A model generated the notes under the pieces. It did not search any database, had not been told where the DNA came from, and was given only the letters and a program-made list of their open reading frames with translations. A stretch of DNA of 35,079 nt from an uncultured Eubacteriales bacterium (lineage in GTDB: Bacteria > Bacillota > Clostridia > Christensenellales > DTU072). The stretch is from positions 1-35,079 of the forward strand of contig CACXFJ010000118.1 of the NCBI GenBank assembly GCA_902766965.1, given 5' to 3'. Both the position numbers and the translations under genes were made by a program. Shown here in pieces: positions 4,508-35,063 of this stretch (the first letter of the stretch is position 1; each line of letters opens with the position of its first letter).

Positions 4508-4521
<14 letters not shown>
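4201..4521 (+). CDS. V/A-type ATPase peripheral stalk subunit G/H (NtpF-like)
   Basis: 106 aa E/K/A-rich coiled coil; first gene of the operon, overlapping subunit I; SD AAGGAG. Confidence 0.8.
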
Positions 4522-7017
<2,496 letters not shown>

Positions 7018-7038
7018 AAAACGTAACCGAGGAAAGGT

Positions 7039-7614
7039 ATGAACGGAAAAGAAGCGATTATCGAAAAGATATTGTCCGACGCGAGAGGAATAGCCAATTC
7101 CACTTTGGAAGAAGCCGGCGCGTTCGGTAAACAAACCATAGAGACTGCCGAAAACGACGTCCGCATTTATCGCGAAAAGAATATGCGGGAATCCTACGAT
7201 GAACGCAAAGAGATTATCCGCAGAAAGATGACCGTCGCAAATCTCGAAGTCAAGAAAGAAATTCTTGCGAAAAAACAAGAGATGATGACGGCGGCTTTCG
7301 ACGAAGCGATAAAACTTATCAAAGACGACGGAAAAAGTTATCTCGATTTGTTGAGAGGAATGATAGAGAAGGCTTCCGACGGCGATAAAGTGGTTTTTTC
7401 CGAACGCGATAAGAATTTAGTCGGCGAGAAGTGGCTTGCCGGCGTAGCCGACGACTTGAATAAGAAGTTGGTTTTCGGCGGATACGGCGATTTTTGCGGC
7501 GGAATCATAGTCGAGAGCGACGGAAGCGATAAGAATATGTCGCTCGAAGTGGAACTCAAATCGGTAAGAGAAGAGTACGAACCCGAAATAGCGGCTATTT
7601 TATTCGGAGAATAG
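7039..7614 (+). CDS. ntpE: V/A-type ATP synthase subunit E
   Basis: N-terminal coiled coil, GGIIV, C-terminal IAAILF; operon position. Confidence 0.9.
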   Translation: MNGKEAIIEKILSDARGIANSTLEEAGAFGKQTIETAENDVRIYREKNMRESYDERKEIIRRKMTVANLEVKKEILAKKQEMMTAAFDEAIKLIKDDGKSYLDLLRGMIEKASDGDKVVFSERDKNLVGEKWLAGVADDLNKKLVFGGYGDFCGGIIVESDGSDKNMSLEVELKSVREEYEPEIAAILFGE

Positions 7615-8592
7615 ATGAAAGACGGACTTATATTCGCGAATGCGAGAGCGAAAGGCAAGGAGGGCAATTTACTGTCCAAAGAAAGACTTATGCGTATGAC
7701 GGAAGCAAAAAACCTTTCCGACGCTATGCGTATTCTGTTGGAAGTAAACTATGCCGCAGGGTTTATCCCCGAAAAAGAAGATTTTTATTCCCTGCTCGAA
7801 GAGGAGGAGCGTTTGACCGCGGCTTTCGTGAGAGAAGCTGCCCCTAAAGAATCGGGAATAGAATGTTACTTTTTAAGGAACGATTATCATAACCTTAAAG
7901 TCCTTTTCAAGCAAAAGTACGCGAATTTAATCGATATAGACAGCCTCGTTTTGCCCGACGGCAATTATACTTTCGGGTACCTTAAAGAAAGGTTCGACCA
8001 AAACAAAACAGATTTCAGTCCGTACGTCGAAAAGGCTTGCGAACAAATAAACAAAGCGTTTGAAGTAGGCAACGGAACTCCGAGGCTTATCGACGTGGTT
8101 TTGGACAAGGCTCTGTACGACGATATAAATTCCCGTCTCGGGAAAAACGCCGATAAATACATCAAGCAGTATTTCCGTGCGAACGCCGATTTGACTAACG
8201 TATTGAGTTATCTCCGCGCCGAAAAGATAGGAGCCGGCGGAAACTTTTTTGCCGAAGGCTTTATAGAGGGCGGAAACATTACCGAAAAGGAGTTTCTTGG
8301 TTTTTCGGGAGATAAAAACAAGTTAAGCAATTACCTTGCGGGAAGTTATCTTAAAGAATTCGCCGACAAAGTATCGAGCGACGACTTCGCCGCGTACGAA
8401 ACGGCGCAGGACGAGTATTTGTTGAAAATATTTTCCGTGAACAAAACCGATATGTTTTCGGTGGCTCCGATTTTAGGGTATTATCTTGCGAAGCTGAACG
8501 AAATAAAGGTAATAAGGGTGGTTCTCGTTTGCATAAAGAACGGCGTGCCCGAAGACCAGATGAAAAAGAGAGTGAGGGAGTTGTATGCGTAG
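7615..8592 (+). CDS. ntpC: V/A-type ATP synthase subunit C (d)
   Basis: ANAR..LL, DYHNLK, DLTN, GYYLAKLNEIKVIR; operon position. Confidence 0.9.
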   Translation: MKDGLIFANARAKGKEGNLLSKERLMRMTEAKNLSDAMRILLEVNYAAGFIPEKEDFYSLLEEEERLTAAFVREAAPKESGIECYFLRNDYHNLKVLFKQKYANLIDIDSLVLPDGNYTFGYLKERFDQNKTDFSPYVEKACEQINKAFEVGNGTPRLIDVVLDKALYDDINSRLGKNADKYIKQYFRANADLTNVLSYLRAEKIGAGGNFFAEGFIEGGNITEKEFLGFSGDKNKLSNYLAGSYLKEFADKVSSDDFAAYETAQDEYLLKIFSVNKTDMFSVAPILGYYLAKLNEIKVIRVVLVCIKNGVPEDQMKKRVRELYA

Positions 8593-8905
8593 GGGAAACA
8601 TAGCCGTAATAGGCGACAAGGACAGCATACTCGCGTTCAAGGCGGTGGGCGTTGACGTCTATCCCGTCAGAAACGAATTCGATTGTGCCGACACGTTAAA
8701 AAAACTCGCCCGTACTTACGCCGTGATTTTCATCACGGAAGACATCGCGGAAAAAATCCCCGATTTGTTAAAGCGATACAAAACCCGCCCCTATCCCGCG
8801 GTCATACCCATACCGGGAGCGCAGGGCAGTACGGGACTCGGAATGAAAGGAATATCCGACGACGTGGAAAAGGCGATAGGCACGGATATTTTAAGCGATA
8901 AATAG
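8585..8905 (+). CDS. ntpG: V/A-type ATP synthase subunit F
   Basis: IAVIGDKDSILAF, YAVIFITE, PAVIPIP, VEKAIG (E. hirae name NtpG). Confidence 0.92.
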   Translation: MRRGNIAVIGDKDSILAFKAVGVDVYPVRNEFDCADTLKKLARTYAVIFITEDIAEKIPDLLKRYKTRPYPAVIPIPGAQGSTGLGMKGISDDVEKAIGTDILSDK

Positions 8906-8926
8906 TTTTTCTTAAAGGAGAAATAG

Positions 8927-10678
8927 ATGGAAAAGGGAAAAGTAATCAAGGTAAGCGGACCGCTTATTGTGGCGGGCGGAATGTCCGAAGCTAAGCTGTT
9001 CGACGTGGTCAAAGTATCCTCGTCGCACCTTATCGGCGAAATCATAGAACTTAGGGGCGACAAGGCGTCTATACAGGTCTATGAAGAAACGGGCGGAATA
9101 GGACCGGGGGACGAAGTGTTCTCCACCGAAATGCCCCTTAGCGTGGAGTTGGGGCCCGGACTTATCGAATCCATATTCGACGGTATCCAGAGACCTCTTA
9201 ACAAACTTTGGGAAAAGAGCGGCGACCGTATAGGACGCGGCGTTGAAGTAAACGCTCTCGACCACGGCAAAGTATGGCGTTTTTACCCCACTGCGAAAGT
9301 AGGCGATACTCTTATTCCCGGCGACGAAATAGGTTACGTTATGGAAAACGAACTTATACGTCACAGCATAATGGTTCCGTCGGGCAAAAAAGGCGTGGTG
9401 GAAAGCGTAGAAGACGGCGAATTCACGTTGGACGACGTGATAGCCACGTTGGACGATAACGGAATTAAGCATAACTTAACGATGGTTCAGAAATGTTCCG
9501 TCCGTAAAGGCAGACCGTACAGAGAAAAACTTTCTCCGAGTATGCCTATGGTCACCGGTCAGAGAGTAATAGATACCTTTTTCCCGATTACGAAAGGCGG
9601 CGTGGCGGCCGTTCCCGGTCCGTTTGGCAGCGGCAAGACGGTAGTTCAGCACCAGCTTGCAAAATGGGCGGACGCCGACATTATTATTTACGTCGGTTGC
9701 GGCGAAAGAGGCAACGAAATGACCGACGTTCTTAACGAATTCCCCGAGCTTATCGACCCGAAGACGGGAGAACCTCTTATGAGAAGAACCGTCCTTATAG
9801 CAAACACTTCCGATATGCCGGTTGCGGCGCGTGAAGCAAGCATATACACGGGTATCACGATAGCGGAATATTTCAGAGATATGGGATATAACGTAGCCAT
9901 AATGGCGGACTCCACTTCCCGTTGGGCGGAGGCGTTGCGTGAAATGAGCGGACGACTCGAAGAAATGCCCGGCGAAGAAGGATATCCCGCGTATCTGTCG
10001 AGCCGACTTGCCGAATTTTACGAAAGAGCGGGTATAGTCAAGGTACTCGGAAGCAAAGGCAAGACGGGCAGCGTCACCGCGATAGGAGCGGTAAGTCCTC
10101 CAGGAGGAGACCTTTCCGAACCGGTAAGCCAGGCTACCTTGCGTATAGTAAAGGTATTCTGGGGATTGAGCGCGTCGCTTGCGTACAAACGTCACTTCCC
10201 CGCTATAGACTGGTTGCAGAGTTATTCCCTGTACGCCGACAGATTAGCTCCGTGGTACAACGATAATATAGGAAGCGAATGGAACGTTTTACGCGGTAAG
10301 GCTATGACGGTGTTGCAGGAAGAAGCGTCTTTGGACGAAATAGTAAGGCTCGTCGGTATGGACGCTTTGGGGGCGAAAGACAGACTTACTATGGAAACAG
10401 CCAAGACCATAAGAGAAGACTATCTCCATCAGAACGCTTTCCACGAAGTGGATACCTACGCTTCGCTCGAAAAGCAGTTACGGATGTTGCGTCTTATAAT
10501 AAACTTCTACGAATTAGGGCAGGACGCCTTACTCAAAAACGTGGATATAGAAGACCTTATCGAAATCCCCGTAAGAGAGAAGATAGGCAGAGCCAAATAT
10601 ATAGAAGAAAGCGATATGGCTCGTTTCGACGAAATAGAAAAAGAATTAAAATCCGAAATACAGGAATTGATAGGATAG
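8927..10678 (+). CDS. ntpA: V/A-type ATP synthase catalytic subunit A
   Basis: P-loop [41 protein letters not shown]; no intein. Confidence 0.98.
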
Positions 10679-10688
10679 GAGGTACGGA

Positions 10689-12062
10689 ATGTTAAAGGAG
10701 TATAAGACCATAAAAGAAGTAGTCGGACCTCTTATGCTCGTCGAGGGCGTCGAAGGAGCAAAATACGACGAACTCGTCGAAATAGAACAGGAAGACGGAG
10801 AAAAGAGAAACGGCAAAGTCCTCGAAGTCAACGGCGACAAGGCGCTCGTTCAGCTTTTCGAAGGTTCTTCTGGAATTAAAATCTCCACCGCGAAAGCGAG
10901 ATTTTTGGGGAAGAGTATAGAGCTCGGCGTAAGCGAAGATATGCTCGGAAGAGTATTCGACGGTATGGGCAGACCGAGAGACAACGGCGCGCCCATTATC
11001 CCCGATAAGAGAATAGACATTAACGGACAACCTATAAACCCCGTCGCCCGTAACTATCCCGACGAATTCATTCAGACCGGGATATCGGCTATTGACGGAC
11101 TTAATACCCTTGTCAGAGGGCAGAAACTTCCCGTGTTCAGCGCGTCCGGACTTCCCCATGCGGAACTCGCCGCCCAGATAGCGAGACAGGCGAAAGTTCT
11201 TAACAGCGACAGTAAGTTCGCCGTAGTGTTCGCCGCTATCGGTATCACCTTCGAAGAAGCCGATTACTTTATATCCGACTTCCGTAAGACGGGAGCTATC
11301 GACAGAACGGTACTTTTTATGAACCTTGCCAACGACCCCGCGATAGAACGTATCGCTACGCCCCGTATGGCTCTTACCGCCGCCGAATATCTCGCGTTCG
11401 AAAAGGATATGCACGTCCTCGTAATCATGACAGATATAACCAACTATTGCGAAGCGTTGCGTGAAGTCAGCGCGGCAAGAAAAGAAGTTCCCGGAAGAAG
11501 AGGTTACCCCGGGTATCTGTACACCAACCTCGCTACAATCTACGAAAGAGCGGGCAGAATAAGGGGCAAAAAGGGCAGTATCACGCAGATACCTATCCTT
11601 ACCATGCCCGAAGACGATAAGACGCACCCTATCCCCGACCTTACGGGATACATTACCGAAGGACAGATTATTCTTAATCGAGAACTCAACAAGAGGGGAA
11701 TAAATCCGCCTATCGACGTTCTTCCGTCGCTGTCCCGTCTTAAAGATAAAGGTATCGGAGCGGGCAAGACGAGAAAGGACCACGCCGACACGATGAATCA
11801 GCTTTTCAGCGCCTACGCAAGAGGAAAAGAAGCGAAAGAGCTTTCCGCAATCTTAGGCGAAGCAGCCCTTACCGAAACCGACAGGAAGTTTGCTCACTTT
11901 GCCGAAGAGTTTGAAAAACTGTATATCAATCAAGGTTTTGACTGTAACAGAACGATAGAAGAAACTCTTGATTTGGGATGGAGTTTGTTAAGACTTCTTC
12001 CGAGAGGGGAGTTGAAACGTATAAGAGACGCTTATCTCGAAGAATATTACGATAGGAAGTAA
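10689..12062 (+). CDS. ntpB: V/A-type ATP synthase subunit B
   Basis: [41 protein letters not shown]. Confidence 0.98.
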
Positions 12063-12075
12063 TCGGAGAAAATAA

Positions 12076-12705
12076 ATGGCAAGACTTAACGTAAACCCGA
12101 CCAGAATGGAGCTTCGTCGCTTAAAGACGAGGTTAAAGACGGCGGTCAGGGGACACAAACTTCTTAAAGACAAGGCGGACGAAACCATAAGACAGTTTAT
12201 GGCGTACGTCAAGGAAAACAAACGCCTCAGAGAAGAGATAGAGACGGAACTTTCGCTTGCTCTCCGTTCTTTTATGCTCGCAAGCGCGGTCACCACTTCG
12301 CAGGTACTCGAAGAAGCGGTGGCTATGCCCGCTTTCAGCGTGGAACTTACCACCGCCGAAAAGAACGTCATGGGAGTCACCGTGCCGCAGATTGCGGTCA
12401 AAGCGGGAGATAAAAAGGAGCTTTATCCGTACTCTTTCGCTTCGGTATCGTCGGAACTTGACGGCAGTATCGCGAATCTCAGCGAACTGCTCGAAAAAAT
12501 GGTCAAACTCGCCGAAGTGGAGAAGACCTGCAATATGCTCGCCGACGAGATAGAGAAGAACAGACGAAGAGTAAACGCTCTCGAATACGTCATGATACCG
12601 CAACTCGAAGAAACGATAAAGTATATCACGATGAAACTCGACGAGAACGAGCGTAGCAATACGATAAGGCTAATGAAAGTAAAAACGATGCTCGAAGAAA
12701 GATAA
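12076..12705 (+). CDS. ntpD: V/A-type ATP synthase subunit D
   Basis: PTRMEL, RGHKLLKDK, RRRVNALEYVMIP, LDENER. Confidence 0.97.
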   Translation: MARLNVNPTRMELRRLKTRLKTAVRGHKLLKDKADETIRQFMAYVKENKRLREEIETELSLALRSFMLASAVTTSQVLEEAVAMPAFSVELTTAEKNVMGVTVPQIAVKAGDKKELYPYSFASVSSELDGSIANLSELLEKMVKLAEVEKTCNMLADEIEKNRRRVNALEYVMIPQLEETIKYITMKLDENERSNTIRLMKVKTMLEER

Positions 12706-12775: not shown

Positions 12776-13510
12776 TTAATAAATGTTTTTAATGGATATG
12801 GAAAGGTATCTCGGAATATCGAACTGATTCCACGGTATTCTGTCCGTCGGGGGATAAACTCTGAAAACGTGGGTTTCTTTCGTGACGGGGTGAATAAGTT
12901 TAAGTTCCGTCGCCCAGAGAGCGAGTCCGAATTCCGCAGGAGACTTGCCCTGCCCGTACTTGTTGTCGCCAAATAGCGGATGACCTAACGTAGCCATCTG
13001 CACTCTAATCTGATGCGCTCTTCCCGTGTGAAGTTTTATCCAAAGCAAGCTCGACGTGTGGTCGGTAGCGATGGTAGTGTAGTCGAGCACGGCTTTTTTC
13101 GCTCCTTCCGTAGCCATCGGCACGCTGTACACAATGTTCTTTTCGGTATCCTTAATAAGGTAGTTTGTAAGCCCGACCAAGGATTTTTCGCGAGGTTCGC
13201 CTACGACTACGGCGAGATATTTTTTCTCTAATTCTCCGTTTCGGAGACTTTCCGAAAGGCGTGAAGCGGCTTTGGAGGTTTTCGCAAAGACCATTACTCC
13301 GCCGGTGGGTCTGTCGAGTCTGTGGACGAGTCCTACGAAAGCGTCGCCGGGTTTGTTATACTTTACGATAAGGTATTCTTTCACGACGGTAAGCATATCC
13401 TTGTCGCCCGTTCCGTCGGGGCAGGAAGGTACGTTTATCGGTTTTACCGCCACGATAATATGGTTATCTTCGAATACTACGTTGAGGTCTTCATAAGTAA
13501 ATTGTTTCAT
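12776..13510 (-). CDS. RluA-family RNA pseudouridine synthase (no S4 domain)
   Basis: VHRLDRPTGG catalytic motif, KKYLAVV, TGRAHQIRVQ, HPLFGD. Confidence 0.93.
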   Translation of the reverse strand: MKQFTYEDLNVVFEDNHIIVAVKPINVPSCPDGTGDKDMLTVVKEYLIVKYNKPGDAFVGLVHRLDRPTGGVMVFAKTSKAASRLSESLRNGELEKKYLAVVVGEPREKSLVGLTNYLIKDTEKNIVYSVPMATEGAKKAVLDYTTIATDHTSSLLWIKLHTGRAHQIRVQMATLGHPLFGDNKYGQGKSPAEFGLALWATELKLIHPVTKETHVFRVYPPTDRIPWNQFDIPRYLSISIKNIY

Positions 13511-13702: not shown

Positions 13703-14389
13703 ATGTTAGGCGTTTTACTTGCGGCAAACGACGTCAACGAAAAGCTGACGGAAACGTTATCTCCCGAAAAGGTAAGTCTTTTCGGCACGAGCGTAATGGT
13801 CAATCCGTCTTTCTACACCGCTCTCGCCGTGTCCGCTATTCTTATCGTTGCGGCGATTATTTTAAGATTTACCGTCGTGAACAAGATGAAAGACGTTCCC
13901 GGTAAGGTTCAGACGATACTCGAAATGTTCGTGGGCGGATTTTCGAAAATGGCGGAAGGCAAGTATTCCGGTTTTGTCGGCGGATATATAGCGATAGCCG
14001 CTATCTACATAGGCTTAGGCACGCTTGTGGAACTTTTAGGTTTTCGTCCCATCATGGCGGACCTTAACGCCTGCGTGGCTATGGGCGTGTCCACTTTCGG
14101 ACTTATATTTTTCTACGGTTTCAAAGCCAACGGAAAAAACCGTCTTAAACATTTCCTTAACCCGATTAACATCGTTACGGACTTAGCGGTTCCCGTAAGT
14201 CTGTCTTTCCGTCTGTTCGGTTCTATAATGAGCGGTTTGCTTATTACCGAACTTGTCTATTCGTTCCTGTTTACGTCGTTCGTCGTACCCGTAATAGTGA
14301 GCGTCATCACTACGTTATTCCACGCCTTCATTCAGGCGTATATATTTGCTACTTTGTCCACTCTGTTTATCGCAGAGGCGACGGAATAA
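13703..14389 (+). CDS. atpB: F1Fo ATP synthase subunit a
   Basis: Hydrophobic; VPGKVQ, PIMADLN, SLSFRLFG (essential Arg), FIQAYIF. Confidence 0.92.
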   Translation: MLGVLLAANDVNEKLTETLSPEKVSLFGTSVMVNPSFYTALAVSAILIVAAIILRFTVVNKMKDVPGKVQTILEMFVGGFSKMAEGKYSGFVGGYIAIAAIYIGLGTLVELLGFRPIMADLNACVAMGVSTFGLIFFYGFKANGKNRLKHFLNPINIVTDLAVPVSLSFRLFGSIMSGLLITELVYSFLFTSFVVPVIVSVITTLFHAFIQAYIFATLSTLFIAEATE

Positions 14390-14653
<264 letters not shown>

Positions 14654-14664
14654 CGAGGTAAGAA

Positions 14665-15195
14665 ATGGATTTTTTCAGCAAGGAAATTATTCTCGGACTT
14701 ACCGTTCAGGAATTTTTGTTGCATTTGCTTAACTTCGTCATACTCATCGTAGTGTTAAGACTTCTTCTTTACAAACCCGTAAAGAAGTTTATGAAAAAAC
14801 GCGACGAAAAGTATAAAGCGGCGCAGGAAAGTTACGAAAATGCGATAAAAAAGACCGAAAGTGCGGAGAAAGACGCCGAGAAGATAATTGACGACGCGCA
14901 CGAAGAGGCGGTTCATATCGCGGAAGAAGCGCATGCTACCGCTATGGTTCAGGCGAGCGAAATTATTGAAGGCGCCAACGAAGAAGCGAAAAGAATAAAA
15001 AAGAGAGCGATAGAAGACGGCGAAAAGGCGAGAGAAAAGGAGAAAGAGAATCTCTACTATTCCATCTCCGACCTTGCCGTGGATATATCGAAAAAGATTA
15101 TCGGCAGGGAAATAAATTCCGCCGACAACGACGCCTTTATCGACAATTTGCTCGACGGTATAAAGAAGAAGGACGAAGAAAAGAAAGATGCGTAA
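14665..15195 (+). CDS. atpF: F1Fo ATP synthase subunit b
   Basis: N-terminal TM with LNF..L...LLYKPV..FMKKR, long coiled coil, SKKII. Confidence 0.9.
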   Translation: MDFFSKEIILGLTVQEFLLHLLNFVILIVVLRLLLYKPVKKFMKKRDEKYKAAQESYENAIKKTESAEKDAEKIIDDAHEEAVHIAEEAHATAMVQASEIIEGANEEAKRIKKRAIEDGEKAREKEKENLYYSISDLAVDISKKIIGREINSADNDAFIDNLLDGIKKKDEEKKDA

Positions 15196-16931
15196 TATCA
15201 CGGTAAAAACATCGGTGACTCTTACCTCGCCGCAACGTAAAAGGTTGGCGGACTTTCTTAAAGAGAGATACGCGGGCGAAGAAATAACGATTACCTACGC
15301 CGAAGAGAAAAATCTTATCGGCGGTATCGTCATAGAGGACGGAGAAACCGTTTTCGACGGTAGCGTAGCGTCGGCGTTGTTCTCGTTCCGAAACAAAAGT
15401 AACGCGTACATAACCGAGTCCGTCTCGAAAGGCGAACTCCCCGCGATGTGGAAAAGAGAACTGTTAGAAAAAGTTCCCACCACGCCGCATACCGTCAATT
15501 ACGGCAGAGTCATTACTTGCGCCGACGGTATTCTTACCGTCGAAGGGCTTAAAGAATGTCGGTATTACGAACTTCTCGAAATAGGCACCGGCGGCTACGC
15601 AGTCGCTATGAACCTTATGTCCGACTCGGTAAAAGCGATGCTTATTACCGCCGACAGGAACATAGAATACGGCGTAACCGTCAAGTGTACGGGAAGAATA
15701 GTCGAAGTACCCGTAGGCGAAACCCTTTTAGGGAGAGTGGTAAATCCCCTCGGAAAGCCTGTCGACGGAAGAGAAATTTTACATTTCGACAAGGTAAGAC
15801 CTATCGAAAATCCCGCTCCGCCCATAATAGACCGAGCGAAAGTAAGCAGACCTTTGCAGACGGGTATACTTGCTATAGACAGTATGATACCTATCGGTAA
15901 AGGACAGAGAGAGCTTATTATAGGCGACAGACAGACGGGTAAATCGAGCATAGCCGTAGACGCTATCATAAATCAACGCGACAAGGACGTAATCTGCGTG
16001 TACGTCGCGATAGGACAGAGAGCAAGTTCGGTAAGTAAACTTATCGCTAAACTGAAAGACGCCGACGCAATGAAGAATACGGTAATCGTGGCAAGCACCG
16101 CGTCCGACTCGGCGGCGTTGCAGTACATAGCTCCGTACACGGGTTGCGCCATAGGCGAAGAGTTTATGGAACAGGGTAAAGACGTACTTATTATTTACGA
16201 CGACCTTACAAAACACGCCAACGCGTACAGAACGATAAGCCTTCTCTTAAAACGCCCGTCGGGAAGAGAAGCGTACCCCGGCGACGTGTTCTATATCCAT
16301 TCGAGACTTCTTGAAAGAAGCGCGCAGCTGTCGCAGGAAAAGGGCGGCGGAAGTATGACCGCGATACCCATAATAGAAACGCAGGCGGGGGATATTTCTC
16401 AATACATTCCGACCAACGTAATCAGTATAACCGACGGACAGATTTATCTCGAAAGCGAACTTTTCCACGCAGGTATAAGACCTGCCGTAAACGTAGGACT
16501 TTCGGTAAGCCGCGTCGGCGGAAGCGCGCAGTATCCCGCCGTAAGGAAACTGTCGAGTAAATTAAGGTTGGAACTCGCGCATTTCAGAGAGATGGCGTTG
16601 TTTACGCAGTTCGGCGCGGAAGTGGACGAAGATACGAGAAGAATACTTCAAAAAGGCGAAAAAGTCACCGAAGTTCTGAAACAGAAAGAAGGCGACCCGA
16701 TGAGCGTGGACAGAGAGATAATAACGCTGTACCTAATTAACGGCGAACTCGAATATATTCCGAAAGAAGAAGTCAAACGCTATATAGAAGGTTTTTACAA
16801 CTATATGGTGAACACCGATTTCAGCACGTTGAAACATCTTCGAGCCGAAGGAAAACTTACCGACGATATAGTAAAGGTCTTGGAAGATAACCTGACTAAC
16901 TACAACGCATATTATTTTAACGAGAGAAAGA

Positions 16932-16945
<14 letters not shown>
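15188..16945 (+). CDS. atpA: F1 subunit alpha with N-terminally fused delta (OSCP) C-terminal domain
   Basis: GQRELIIGDRQTGKS, PSGREAYPGDVFY, PTNVISITDGQ; extra ~75 N-terminal aa with delta-like VKTSVTL...NLIGGIVIEDGETVFDGSV. Confidence 0.93.
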
Positions 16946-19608
<2,663 letters not shown>

Positions 19609-32414: not shown

Positions 32415-35063
32415 ATGAAAAAAGGGGTATTTCAAATAGTGACGTTAGCTGTGTTCGTGATACTTCTGAGTGTGACGCTATGCGCGTGTTCGCTACTCGG
32501 TAGCGGTTCCAAAGATAAAGACAAAGACGGAAATGTCGATAAAAAACTATCCGGAATATTCCCGACGACGGAAACGCCTAAATGGAGTTCGGCGTCCGGT
32601 GAAATTTTCGAATACAGAGAAGAATCCGACGCAGATACGGGCAGTCAAAAAATTATAGTCACCGGATTGAAGAAAAAGACGGAAAAACAAGTAGTGATAC
32701 CCGACGGCGTAAACGAGATAGCCGAAAATGCTTTCACCGGGTGTAATAATATTATAAGTCTTGTAATATCGGATACCGTGACGAGTATAGGAAGAGCCGC
32801 ATTCTACGAGTGTACGGGACTCATCGGAGTGTCCGTAGGCAAGAACGTATCGAATATAGGCGACGAAGCCTTCGGCGGATGTTATAAGCTCGTTGAAGTA
32901 TATAATAAGTCGTCCCTCGATATTATGGCAAGAAGCGGAGATAACGGAAATATAGGGTATTACGCGAAGAACGTGTATGACAAAGCGGACCTAACGAGAC
33001 TTGACGTAGACGATAACAATTATATAAGTTATATAGACGGCGACAAAAAGACTCTTATGGGGTACTCCGGCACGCAGACCGAACTTGCTTTGCCCGACGG
33101 AGTGACCGATATCTATCATTACGCATTTGCTTTCAATGGTTCCGTCAAGAAAGTGACTATGAGTAAGGACGTTATTATGACGGGAGACGGTGTGTTTACC
33201 GGTTGCACCGCTCTTAAATACGTAGAGTTCAGCGGAAAAATAAAGAAAATCAGCCGCGGCGCATTCTATGGGTGTACCGCCCTTAACGGCATAGCGATAC
33301 CGGAGACCGTGACGAGCGTCGGCGAATATGCTTTCGCTTTATGTACCTCTCTGACGAGAGTTATTGTCGGAACAAACGTAAAGAAAATAGAGGAAGCCGC
33401 TTTTTATAATTGTTACAAACTCGTAGAGGTATATAACAAATCCTCTCTCGATATCAAGGCGGCAGCCGCAAGCGACAACGAGCCGAGCAGCGCGGTTGGC
33501 GATAACGTAGGTTACGGCGACATAGGAAAATACGTTAAATACGTGTACAAAGAAAGCGGCAAGAGCAGACTTGCTACCGACGAAAAAGGTTTTGTCGTTT
33601 ATGCCGACGGAATAAACAAGATACTCGTCAATTATATCGGAGAAGAAACCGCTCCCACTTTGCCGTCCGAAGTTACGGAAATAAACGATTACGCATTCTA
33701 CGATTGCGATAAGATTACCGAAATAAAGATTCCGAGCGGTGTGACGAGTATCGGGAAATCCGCCTTTTTAGGATGCGACGAACTTACCGAAGTAACCATT
33801 CCTGCCGAAACGACGAGCATAGGAAGAGACGGAATTTTAAGAGATTGTCCTAAATTAGCCAAGGTTTCACTTCCGACGTCGGCTATAAAGGCGTTGAACG
33901 GAGCAAGAGTAAAGAAAGTAGTCGTTACGAGCGGAGAGACGATACCGGAAATGGCATTTTCTGGACTGAAAGAAATGACGGAAATAATTCTCCCAGCCGG
34001 CTTGAAGGTCATAGGCGACGGGGCTTTTTACGGCTGTACCGGCTTGACCGACGTAATTATTCCCGATACCGTGACGGGCATAGGCGACGGGGCTTTTTAC
34101 GACTGTACCGGCTTGACCGACGTAATTATTCCCGATACCGTGATGGTCATAGGCTCCGCTGCGTTCGCAGGCTGTGAAGGAATGAAAGCCTTATATTATA
34201 AAGGGACGGCTGAACAGTGGAATAAAATAACGGTGTCAGGAGAAATCGGCACAGAAGCGAAACGTTACTTCTATTCGGAGACCGCTCCGACTAAAGAAGG
34301 AAATTATTGGCGCTACTTCGACGGTAAAGTTTTCGTTTGGGAAACGGTACACATTCATTCTTTCGGCGAATGGACGGAGAAGACGCCCGCTACCTGCGTG
34401 ACGGATAAAGTAGAACGCAGAGAGTGTCTCTCTTGCGGCGTGGAGCAGACGAGAACGGTAGAAAAAACCGCGTTGGGACACGAGTTGGAACGACACGAAG
34501 CGCAAGTGCCCACTTGCACCGAAGTAGGGTGGGACGAGTATGAAACCTGTACCCGTGGCGGGTGTGACTATACTACAAGAAAAGAAAAACCGGCATTGGG
34601 ACACGACTACGATGAGAACGATATTTGCAGAAGATGTAGAGAAGAAAAACAAACGGACGTGAGCAAGTTTACGTTTGAATACGATGCAGAACAAGGCGGA
34701 TATACCATTATAGGATATGCCGGAGAAGAAGCAGATGTAATTATTCCCAAAAAGTACAATGACGGAACGAATGGCGTAAAGGATGTCAAAGCGATAGCTA
34801 ATCATGTTTTCAATAACAAAGTTGGACTAATCAGTGTAAAAATTCTTGACAACGTGACGAGTATCGGTGCAAATGCGTTCAGTGGTTGCGTCAGTCTTAT
34901 AGACGTTCACTATAACGGAACGAAAGAACAATGGAACGAAATAACGAAAGCCGAAGATATAGGATTTAACGACGGAGTTACGAGGACGATTCATTGCACC
35001 GACGGAACTATAGTAATAGGCGACGTTAGCGGTGGCGGAAGCGAAGAAGCGGTAGGCGAATAA
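32415..35063 (+). CDS. BspA-like leucine-rich-repeat (LRR_5/TpLRR) surface lipoprotein with Cys/His-rich modules
   Basis: Signal peptide with lipobox-like LCAC; many IPxxVTxIGxxAFxxCxxL repeats; ATC..CxxC..ALGH modules; SD GGAGG. Confidence 0.9.
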   Translation: MKKGVFQIVTLAVFVILLSVTLCACSLLGSGSKDKDKDGNVDKKLSGIFPTTETPKWSSASGEIFEYREESDADTGSQKIIVTGLKKKTEKQVVIPDGVNEIAENAFTGCNNIISLVISDTVTSIGRAAFYECTGLIGVSVGKNVSNIGDEAFGGCYKLVEVYNKSSLDIMARSGDNGNIGYYAKNVYDKADLTRLDVDDNNYISYIDGDKKTLMGYSGTQTELALPDGVTDIYHYAFAFNGSVKKVTMSKDVIMTGDGVFTGCTALKYVEFSGKIKKISRGAFYGCTALNGIAIPETVTSVGEYAFALCTSLTRVIVGTNVKKIEEAAFYNCYKLVEVYNKSSLDIKAAAASDNEPSSAVGDNVGYGDIGKYVKYVYKESGKSRLATDEKGFVVYADGINKILVNYIGEETAPTLPSEVTEINDYAFYDCDKITEIKIPSGVTSIGKSAFLGCDELTEVTIPAETTSIGRDGILRDCPKLAKVSLPTSAIKALNGARVKKVVVTSGETIPEMAFSGLKEMTEIILPAGLKVIGDGAFYGCTGLTDVIIPDTVTGIGDGAFYDCTGLTDVIIPDTVMVIGSAAFAGCEGMKALYYKGTAEQWNKITVSGEIGTEAKRYFYSETAPTKEGNYWRYFDGKVFVWETVHIHSFGEWTEKTPATCVTDKVERRECLSCGVEQTRTVEKTALGHELERHEAQVPTCTEVGWDEYETCTRGGCDYTTRKEKPALGHDYDENDICRRCREEKQTDVSKFTFEYDAEQGGYTIIGYAGEEADVIIPKKYNDGTNGVKDVKAIANHVFNNKVGLISVKILDNVTSIGANAFSGCVSLIDVHYNGTKEQWNEITKAEDIGFNDGVTRTIHCTDGTIVIGDVSGGGSEEAVGE
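34010..34154 (+). repeat. Intragenic 69-bp tandem repeat (one LRR unit), 2 copies plus a partial third
   Basis: Units start at 34010 and 34079 and are 66/69 nt identical; a third CATAGGC starts at 34148. Confidence 0.92.

Follow-up and report, generated by a model that had tools for sequence, protein, structure and literature searches.

How many peripheral stalks an F-type ATP synthase carries when the domain that holds the stalk is joined to the alpha subunit is the question raised by a gene at positions 15188-16945 (plus strand) of a 35,079-nucleotide (nt) stretch of DNA, called here the window. The window belongs to contig CACXFJ010000118.1 of assembly GCA_902766965.1, from an uncultured Eubacteriales bacterium (Christensenellales; DTU072). 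In F1, three alpha subunits are accompanied by one delta subunit, whose N-domain grips the alpha N-termini and whose C-domain binds the b2 stalk. The gene was found to encode a protein of 585 amino acids (aa) in which the delta C-terminal domain (delta-C) is followed by alpha. The deltaC-alpha fusion is real, and the delta N-domain is absent.

The deltaC-alpha fusion and the missing delta N-domain

The fused gene was found to be one open reading frame (ORF), supported by Pfam, NCBIfam and independent contigs. Its start overlaps the stop of atpF by 8 nt (15188-15195), an arrangement of the translational-coupling type. The first 70 aa (15188-15397) contained the delta/OSCP C-terminal domain with four strands and two helices, recognised by Pfam, AlphaFold2 (AF2) and Foldseek. 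The Pfam OSCP profile (PF00213) matched aa 3-69 at profile positions 104-170 of 172, with 47.2 bits (E 3.5e-12) for the full 585 aa and 51.4 bits (E 1.7e-13) when aa 1-100 were searched alone, against a cut-off of 22.3. Profile positions 1-103, which form the delta N-terminal helical bundle, were unmatched in the fused protein. The full-length delta model TIGR01145 gave 35.7 bits on the protein, under its cut-off of 57.5, as expected since only half of delta is present.

The F1 alpha proper (aa 101-585; 15488-16942) was found to contain the beta-barrel, nucleotide-binding and C-terminal domains in order, with PF02874 at 105-169, PF00006 at 226-441 and PF00306 at 448-569. The NCBIfam atpA model TIGR00962 aligned aa 96-575 to profile positions 18-500 of 503 with 689.8 bits (cut-off 484.45). 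The P-loop residues and the catalytic-site motifs were invariant among 36 aligned fused sequences. The initial annotation had described an ORF overlapping atpF with a delta C-domain followed by alpha, a missing delta N-domain and no standalone atpH, and all three points were borne out, including OSCP similarity in the N-terminal part.

The frame of the fused gene begins just 8 codons 5′ of the ATG, behind a TAA, and therefore no in-frame delta N-domain can be encoded upstream. In the organism's own genome (1.67 Mb, 141 contigs, 96.2% complete), the fused gene was the single OSCP match at E<=10. The same genome contained one b gene and one F-type alpha, and no second F-type beta was found in it. 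A candidate remnant of the delta N-domain was considered and rejected: the genome search had stretched the OSCP match to profile position 85 across the TAA, and this stretch was a lysine/arginine-rich reading of the atpF 3′ end in another frame.

The AF2 model of the fused protein, built with 36 fused homologues, had a predicted local distance difference test score (pLDDT) of 77.1. It contained strand-helix-strand-strand-strand-helix (residues 2-80), followed by a helix at 85-93 and the alpha barrel from residue 101. Residues 1-100 modelled alone gave a pLDDT of 89.4, and all 33 of their 33 Foldseek matches at E<=0.001 were delta, OSCP or b-delta chains (root-mean-square deviation 1.3-2.7 Å). 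For the whole model, chains I, K and J of Protein Data Bank (PDB) entry 9jc1 were found at ranks 1, 2 and 5, with a query TM-score (TMq) of 0.79-0.83 over 570-572 columns. Alpha-only chains reached a TMq of about 0.72 over about 475 columns. Chain I of 9jc1 ("Engineering of ATP synthase") aligned with the fused protein in a single stretch, 11-566 to 13-570 (E 7.7e-163), with only a 1-residue indel at the junction. From this alignment and the model, the junction (aa 71-100; 15398-15487) was found to contain the end of the last delta-C helix and the alpha N-terminal helix, which serves as the linker; in the model, the helices of this region are at 60-80 and 85-93. The alpha N-terminal helix, at first taken to be divergent, is thus present.

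The same frame was recovered in contigs of other studies. A 30.8-kb DNA contig (X2) and a 9.8-kb RNA-library contig (X17), each from another study, spanned 14600-17000 with 13 and 9 substitutions, respectively, and 0 indels, and shorter contigs also crossed the junction (X4 at 15150-15473; X12 at 15034-15431). Within 15188-15500 (first 100 codons), codon reading gave R19K and S80A, the other substitutions being silent. A stop or frameshift hidden by sequencing error, for which the junction had been singled out initially, is ruled out by these independent contigs. The 1 kb around the junction was present in runs from 14 studies, mostly of bovine, sheep and pig gut. A word-based protein search limited to long proteins gave seven clusters of 585-586 aa from other assemblies, with 64-100% identity over the first 100 residues, and all seven carried the OSCP and alpha domains.

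Distribution and lability of the fusion in relatives

The organism was found to occur in ruminant and pig gut samples. A single-protein query gave four close relatives with 93, 92, 75 and 55% identity over the first 130 aa, all metagenome-assembled genomes ("uncultured Christensenella sp.", "Christensenella sp. UBA6420" and "Christensenellales bacterium"). Of the 25 genomes in the genus of the window (own included), 12 gave a delta-C match within a 580-609-aa frame and 10 within a 76-136-aa frame, and 3 gave none. In the order, an OSCP match was found in 220 of 401 genomes.

The best 150 of the 234 matches in the order were tallied by hand from open-frame length. A canonical full-length delta (profile start <=22, frames of 174-200 aa) accounted for 32 of the 150 matches listed, frames of at least 566 aa for 59 and frames of 71-116 aa for 54. 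The remaining five were a 71-aa mini-delta (G357), a frame of the same length (G342), two tandem delta-C proteins (G004 and G029) and a b-deltaC fusion (G200). Most delta matches listed for the order are therefore without the N-domain, either as a free mini-delta of 71-116 aa or as a fusion to alpha. In the class (401 genomes), other orders contained mostly full-length delta, with frames of 593-683 aa in 9 of the 150 listed rows and short frames in a few. A profile built from residues 1-200 of 24 fusions gave 871 matches at E<=1e-30 among 1.84 billion representatives, and 89 of the best 150 of these contained a single matched stretch running from delta-C into the alpha barrel.

Inspection of 60 loci revealed 33 fused ORFs, all closed and 571-732 aa long, or 34 when that of the window is counted. 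The same loci gave 30 split b/mini-delta/alpha arrangements, with a mini-delta of about 71-94 aa in those read; one of the 30 was the G200 locus (L057), which has a 227-aa b-deltaC fusion and a separate alpha. The overlap of b and mini-delta in the split relatives is the same as that of atpF and the fused gene in the window. The linker from delta-C to the barrel was found to be variable, from about 0 to 50 aa, with alpha beginning at residue 97-151.

A maximum-likelihood tree of alpha, with the delta part removed, was built from 71 rows picked from these surveys (34 fused, 30 split and 7 beside a canonical delta). The fused label changed 9 times on the tree (bootstrap range 9-11), at least 8 changes being forced by well-supported branches, and the fused rows formed a single group in 0 of 200 bootstrap trees. 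The window's alpha was placed in an all-fused clade of 8 rows, next to a mostly split clade of 12. Since the fused and split states both lack the N-domain, its loss is the primary change, and the fusion is a labile, secondary add-on. The proposal that a covalent tether replaces the N-domain did not hold, as the unfused mini-deltas (71-116 aa) of relatives in the genus and order also lack it. Genomes of genus g1 carry three distant alpha lineages: beside the fused clade of the window there are a split clade and, near the canonical-delta clade, another fused one (L073, L074 and L076). This pattern suggests operon replacement or transfer within the genus.

Further architectures were found among the relatives. 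A b-deltaC-alpha triple fusion of 732 aa was present at L065 (with L084 and L083; G282:C47, minus strand), and triple fusions of 724-753 aa were present in the representatives P0047, P0049, P0065 and P0085; in Pfam, the triple fusions contained ATP-synt_B, the OSCP C-part and the alpha domains. Such a protein makes three membrane-anchored b segments per F1 unavoidable. The triple-fusion operon of G282 also contained a separate short b (139 aa), a, c, gamma, beta and a 97-aa epsilon, and the same contig carried a canonical operon with a 178-aa delta. Full-length delta (OSCP profile 3-24 to 171-172) was fused to alpha in P0033, P0035, P0063 and P0074, with 667-699 aa; the three N-domains per F1 of such an enzyme cannot all occupy the axis. 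In other Clostridia orders, L085 (G739:C84) and L086 (G461:C25) contained a delta of 261 and 253 aa, respectively, in which a normal N-domain precedes two C-domains in tandem, and a delta of this design might hold two stalks. The c subunits of these two operons contained the Gln and Glu-Thr-Ser motif of Na+ type. Repeated delta-C was also found in L009 (G004), a 131-aa protein of two tandem delta-C domains, and in L056 (G029), a protein of 182 aa whose delta-C-like units are repeated and in part degenerate.

Stalk number and ion coupling

The fused protein is best read, with a probability put slightly above even, as part of a multi-stalk enzyme with a high ion/ATP ratio, in which each alpha would be a b2 docking site and two or three stalks with their a-subunits would be present. 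We infer the stalk number and its bioenergetic consequence from the fusion and its fold, from a genome with neither the N-domain nor a second delta, from the collinearity with the engineered three-stalk construct and from the predicted b2 interface. In the proposed arrangement, each of the three alphas would bear at its N-terminus a delta-C, the clamp for the C-terminus of a b2 stalk. A single stalk is normally enforced by the delta N-domain from its place on the three-fold axis; the genome lacks this domain, and the stator would therefore be fastened through alpha itself. Two or three stalks with a-subunits would pass more ions per turn, and would therefore allow ATP synthesis at low ion-motive force, or the pumping of more ions per ATP.

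A complex of fused aa 1-180 with two b chains (aa 95-176) was predicted with a score of 0.63, whereas the best of three controls gave 0.00. Of 157 solved complexes, 116 reached the mark that it passed, as did 2 of 215 mismatched pairs. Contact agreement between runs was at least 96% and the partner pLDDT at least 72. To the predicted b2 interface, the fused protein contributed the helices and sheet of delta-C and the linker helix, and b contributed residues 128-170.

The closest experimental counterpart is the engineered enzyme of Bacillus PS3 (Ueno et al., Nat Commun 2025;16:5410; PMC12229609). In it, delta residues 2-104 were deleted and the remainder was fused to alpha. The enzyme was found to bind about two b2 stalks on average and three at most, with one a-subunit per stalk; H+/ATP was 5.8 vs 3.0 in bulk assays, and a, b and c were unaltered. 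It was concluded there that delta-N restricts the enzyme to a single stalk (PMC12229609). The initial annotation had argued that three delta-C domains per F1 would leave either idle copies or extra stalks; this logic is sound, and it is the reasoning published with the PS3 fusion.

The strongest alternative is that the fusion only tethers delta-C, one of the three copies holding b2 and a while two stay idle. A single stalk could follow from the geometry of the c-ring, from the order of assembly or from a limited supply of a and b, which have single genes in this operon. Solved natural F-type enzymes are all one-stalked save the two-stalked enzyme of Chloroflexus (PMC12002316), and many particles of the engineered enzyme were one-stalked on grids (PMC12229609). 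Yet the engineered fusion gained stalks and a-subunits unaided and its H+/ATP was doubled (PMC12229609), the triple fusions of relatives make three b anchors per F1 unavoidable, and the N-domain that enforces one stalk is lost in most of the delta matches listed for the order. A single stalk with spare domains is accordingly held to be rather unlikely, though it is the rival that stands up best.

Internal initiation or proteolysis at the junction might instead yield free alpha together with some fused alpha or free mini-delta, so that mature F1 would hold mixed subunits with fewer than three delta-C. Mini-delta and alpha are separate proteins in close relatives, and the fused gene contains an in-frame Met87, 13 nt upstream of which lies a weak purine-rich stretch. 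Met87 is not conserved, however: the position was occupied by Ala in L069 and by Asn in L070 and L071, and Met was shifted in L072. Because of this variation among the nearest fused relatives, a conserved internal alpha start was rejected. The junction showed neither a start nor a Shine-Dalgarno site that was conserved, and the variable linker length of the fusions makes a conserved cleavage site unlikely. Mixed mature subunits are thus improbable.

That the gene is an artefact or in decay, its stop lost by assembly error or its operon pseudogenised as redundant with a V/A-type ATPase, is scarcely credible: the full V/A-type operon does lie directly upstream and the genome assembly is in 141 contigs, but the frame recurs in independent contigs of other studies, fused genes are closed ORFs in 34 of 71 alpha-tree rows (window's own included), every operon gene is intact with strong family scores, and the catalytic-site motifs are invariant across the 36 aligned fused sequences.

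Several points weigh against the multi-stalk reading itself. The passing complex score may reflect likeness to solved delta-b interfaces, such complexes having already been solved, and is not proof of binding. The operon contains single a and b genes and nothing that shows their raised expression. The RNA-library contig covers the gene but cannot prove transcription, and sequence alone is compatible with cleavage or internal initiation. Cryo-electron microscopy grids of the engineered enzyme showed few three-stalk particles, and its activity was lower (PMC12229609). The link to Na+ pumps is also qualified, as set out below for the c subunit. In favour of several stalks stand the triple fusions, which force three b anchors per F1.

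A broader reading, held tentatively and a little short of even, is that multi-stalk F-type ATP synthases are common in gut anaerobes, so that many sampled Christensenellales without the delta N-domain would have two or three b2-a stalks. If this were true, the stalks would number two or three whether delta-C is free, on alpha, or on b and alpha, and the ion/ATP ratio would be two- to threefold the c-ring value. Switching of the fusion state would then be easy, because the fusion would only fix a non-covalent interaction that already works.

The ion/ATP ratio sets the lowest membrane potential that permits ATP synthesis and, to our knowledge, was thought before 2025 to depend on c-ring size alone. 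The c subunit (atpE, 82 aa; 14405-14653; Pfam ATP-synt_C) was found to have its best PDB matches, all Na+-type, in the c subunits of A. woodii, I. tartaricus and F. nucleatum, and aligned to 1yce (I. tartaricus) without a numbering shift. It contained Glu65, Thr66, Thr67 and Tyr70, with Met at the position of Gln32 (I. tartaricus numbering); these five positions are what we take to be the ligands of a Na+-type site. As one ligand is replaced, the ion specificity is uncertain. The own genome contained genes for an RnfD/NqrB-family subunit (G000:C136:14190-15128) and for the beta subunit of a Na+-translocating decarboxylase (G000:C108:1227-2513), and these pumps are possible candidate sources of a small ion gradient. 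Rnf-like and decarboxylase pumps count among the low-energy ion pumps, a kind that Acidaminococcus has as well. No match to an H+-pyrophosphatase was found in the own genome (96.2% complete). An abundant livestock-gut lineage with an Rnf and a decarboxylase pump has the design in real and intact form and apparently uses it.

The F-type operon was found to be complete (13703-19608, from the ORF list and Pfam), with the gene order a-c-b-[deltaC-alpha]-gamma-beta-epsilon, all on the plus strand. The Fo subunit a gene atpB (228 aa; 13703-14389; Pfam ATP-synt_A, 93.8 bits) is followed by atpE and by atpF (b subunit, 176 aa; 14665-15195; TIGR01144, 78.9 bits), the sole b match in the genome. The fused gene is followed by atpG (gamma, 286 aa; 16932-17792; Pfam ATP-synt, 239.9 bits), atpD (beta, 466 aa; 17795-19195; PF00006 match at 18191-18832) and atpC (epsilon, 138 aa; 19192-19608; PF02823 and PF00401). 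Directly upstream of this operon, a complete V/A-type ATPase operon was present at 4508-12705, with I (666 aa), a 158-aa double-hairpin c/K, E, C/d, A (583 aa), B (457 aa) and D (209 aa), and a pseudouridine synthase gene (12776-13510, minus strand) lies between the two. Two rotary ATPases are thus kept side by side in the organism. Unrelated to the fusion, the window also contained a 603-aa protein with a WG-containing beta repeat (142-1953) and an 882-aa BspA-type leucine-rich-repeat protein (32415-35063), both probably surface proteins.

Comparison with known systems

The engineered PS3 protein of 9JC1 was found to be the nearest in design. Both proteins contain delta from about residue 105 to its end, followed by a short link and alpha from its N-terminal helix, with 585 aa here and 580 aa there, and neither contains the delta N-domain. 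The PS3 protein is man-made, from an aerobic thermophile and with an artificial Gly/Ser link, whereas the protein described here is natural, with a linker of its own sequence, and is 46% identical. The stalk number was measured for 9JC1; the present protein is known from its sequence.

The mycobacterial b-delta fusion (PDB 7JG5) is likewise a stator fusion that involves delta, and its delta-C part matches. There, delta is on b, the N-domain is kept and one stalk is present, whereas b is separate here (176-aa ORF); the b-delta model NF009961 gave 28.6 and 42.8 bits, against a cut-off of 328. The b subunit of N-ATPase (TIGR03321) contains a delta-C-like tail without an N-domain, a weak match of 22.8 bits, but that segment is on b and the operon order is different. 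The N-ATPase models were below their cut-offs for both alpha (TIGR03324, 587.3 vs 750.5) and b (TIGR03321, 36.1 vs 224.7).

In the F1Fo of Chloroflexus aurantiacus (PNAS 2025, PMC12002316), an altered delta allows stalks and a-subunits beyond the first to bind. The b C-terminus is gripped there by a delta-C seated on the alpha barrel, and the delta chain of 9itj was among the best fold matches to the delta-C described here. Unlike the present protein, the Chloroflexus delta is separate and keeps a shortened, dimerising N-domain, and exactly two stalks are present (PMC12002316).

Natural deltaC-alpha fusions were found in print, so the initial view of this fusion as an unfamiliar kind was not sustained. 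In the literature searches, two sources described them, and no characterised natural fused enzyme was found. The Discussion of PMC12229609 names natural fusions in Acidaminococcus fermentans and in the UniProt entries G4Q3K6 and A0A1I2C5T3, and calls a multi-stalk enzyme "highly likely", and a phylogenomic survey (bioRxiv 10.64898/2026.10.01.756066) lists delta-alpha fusions and ties short deltas to large predicted c-rings. The window's protein resembles these published fusions in being natural, in missing the delta N-domain and in coming from an anaerobe, and the same multi-stalk hypothesis is attached to them; the lineage here is Christensenellales, unlike that of the published Acidaminococcus fusions. 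The available portions of the two sources do not describe a free mini-delta as sister state, nor repeated switching between the states.

The natural variants in Clostridia, namely free mini-delta, deltaC-alpha, b-deltaC-alpha, doubled delta-C and full delta-alpha, form a natural test set for the control of stalk number and for fermenter life on small ion gradients. Set beside the known systems, the protein is a real addition to a fusion type already published, and what is added here is the extent of the N-domain-less delta in Christensenellales, its free mini-delta alternative and the further architectures found in relatives.

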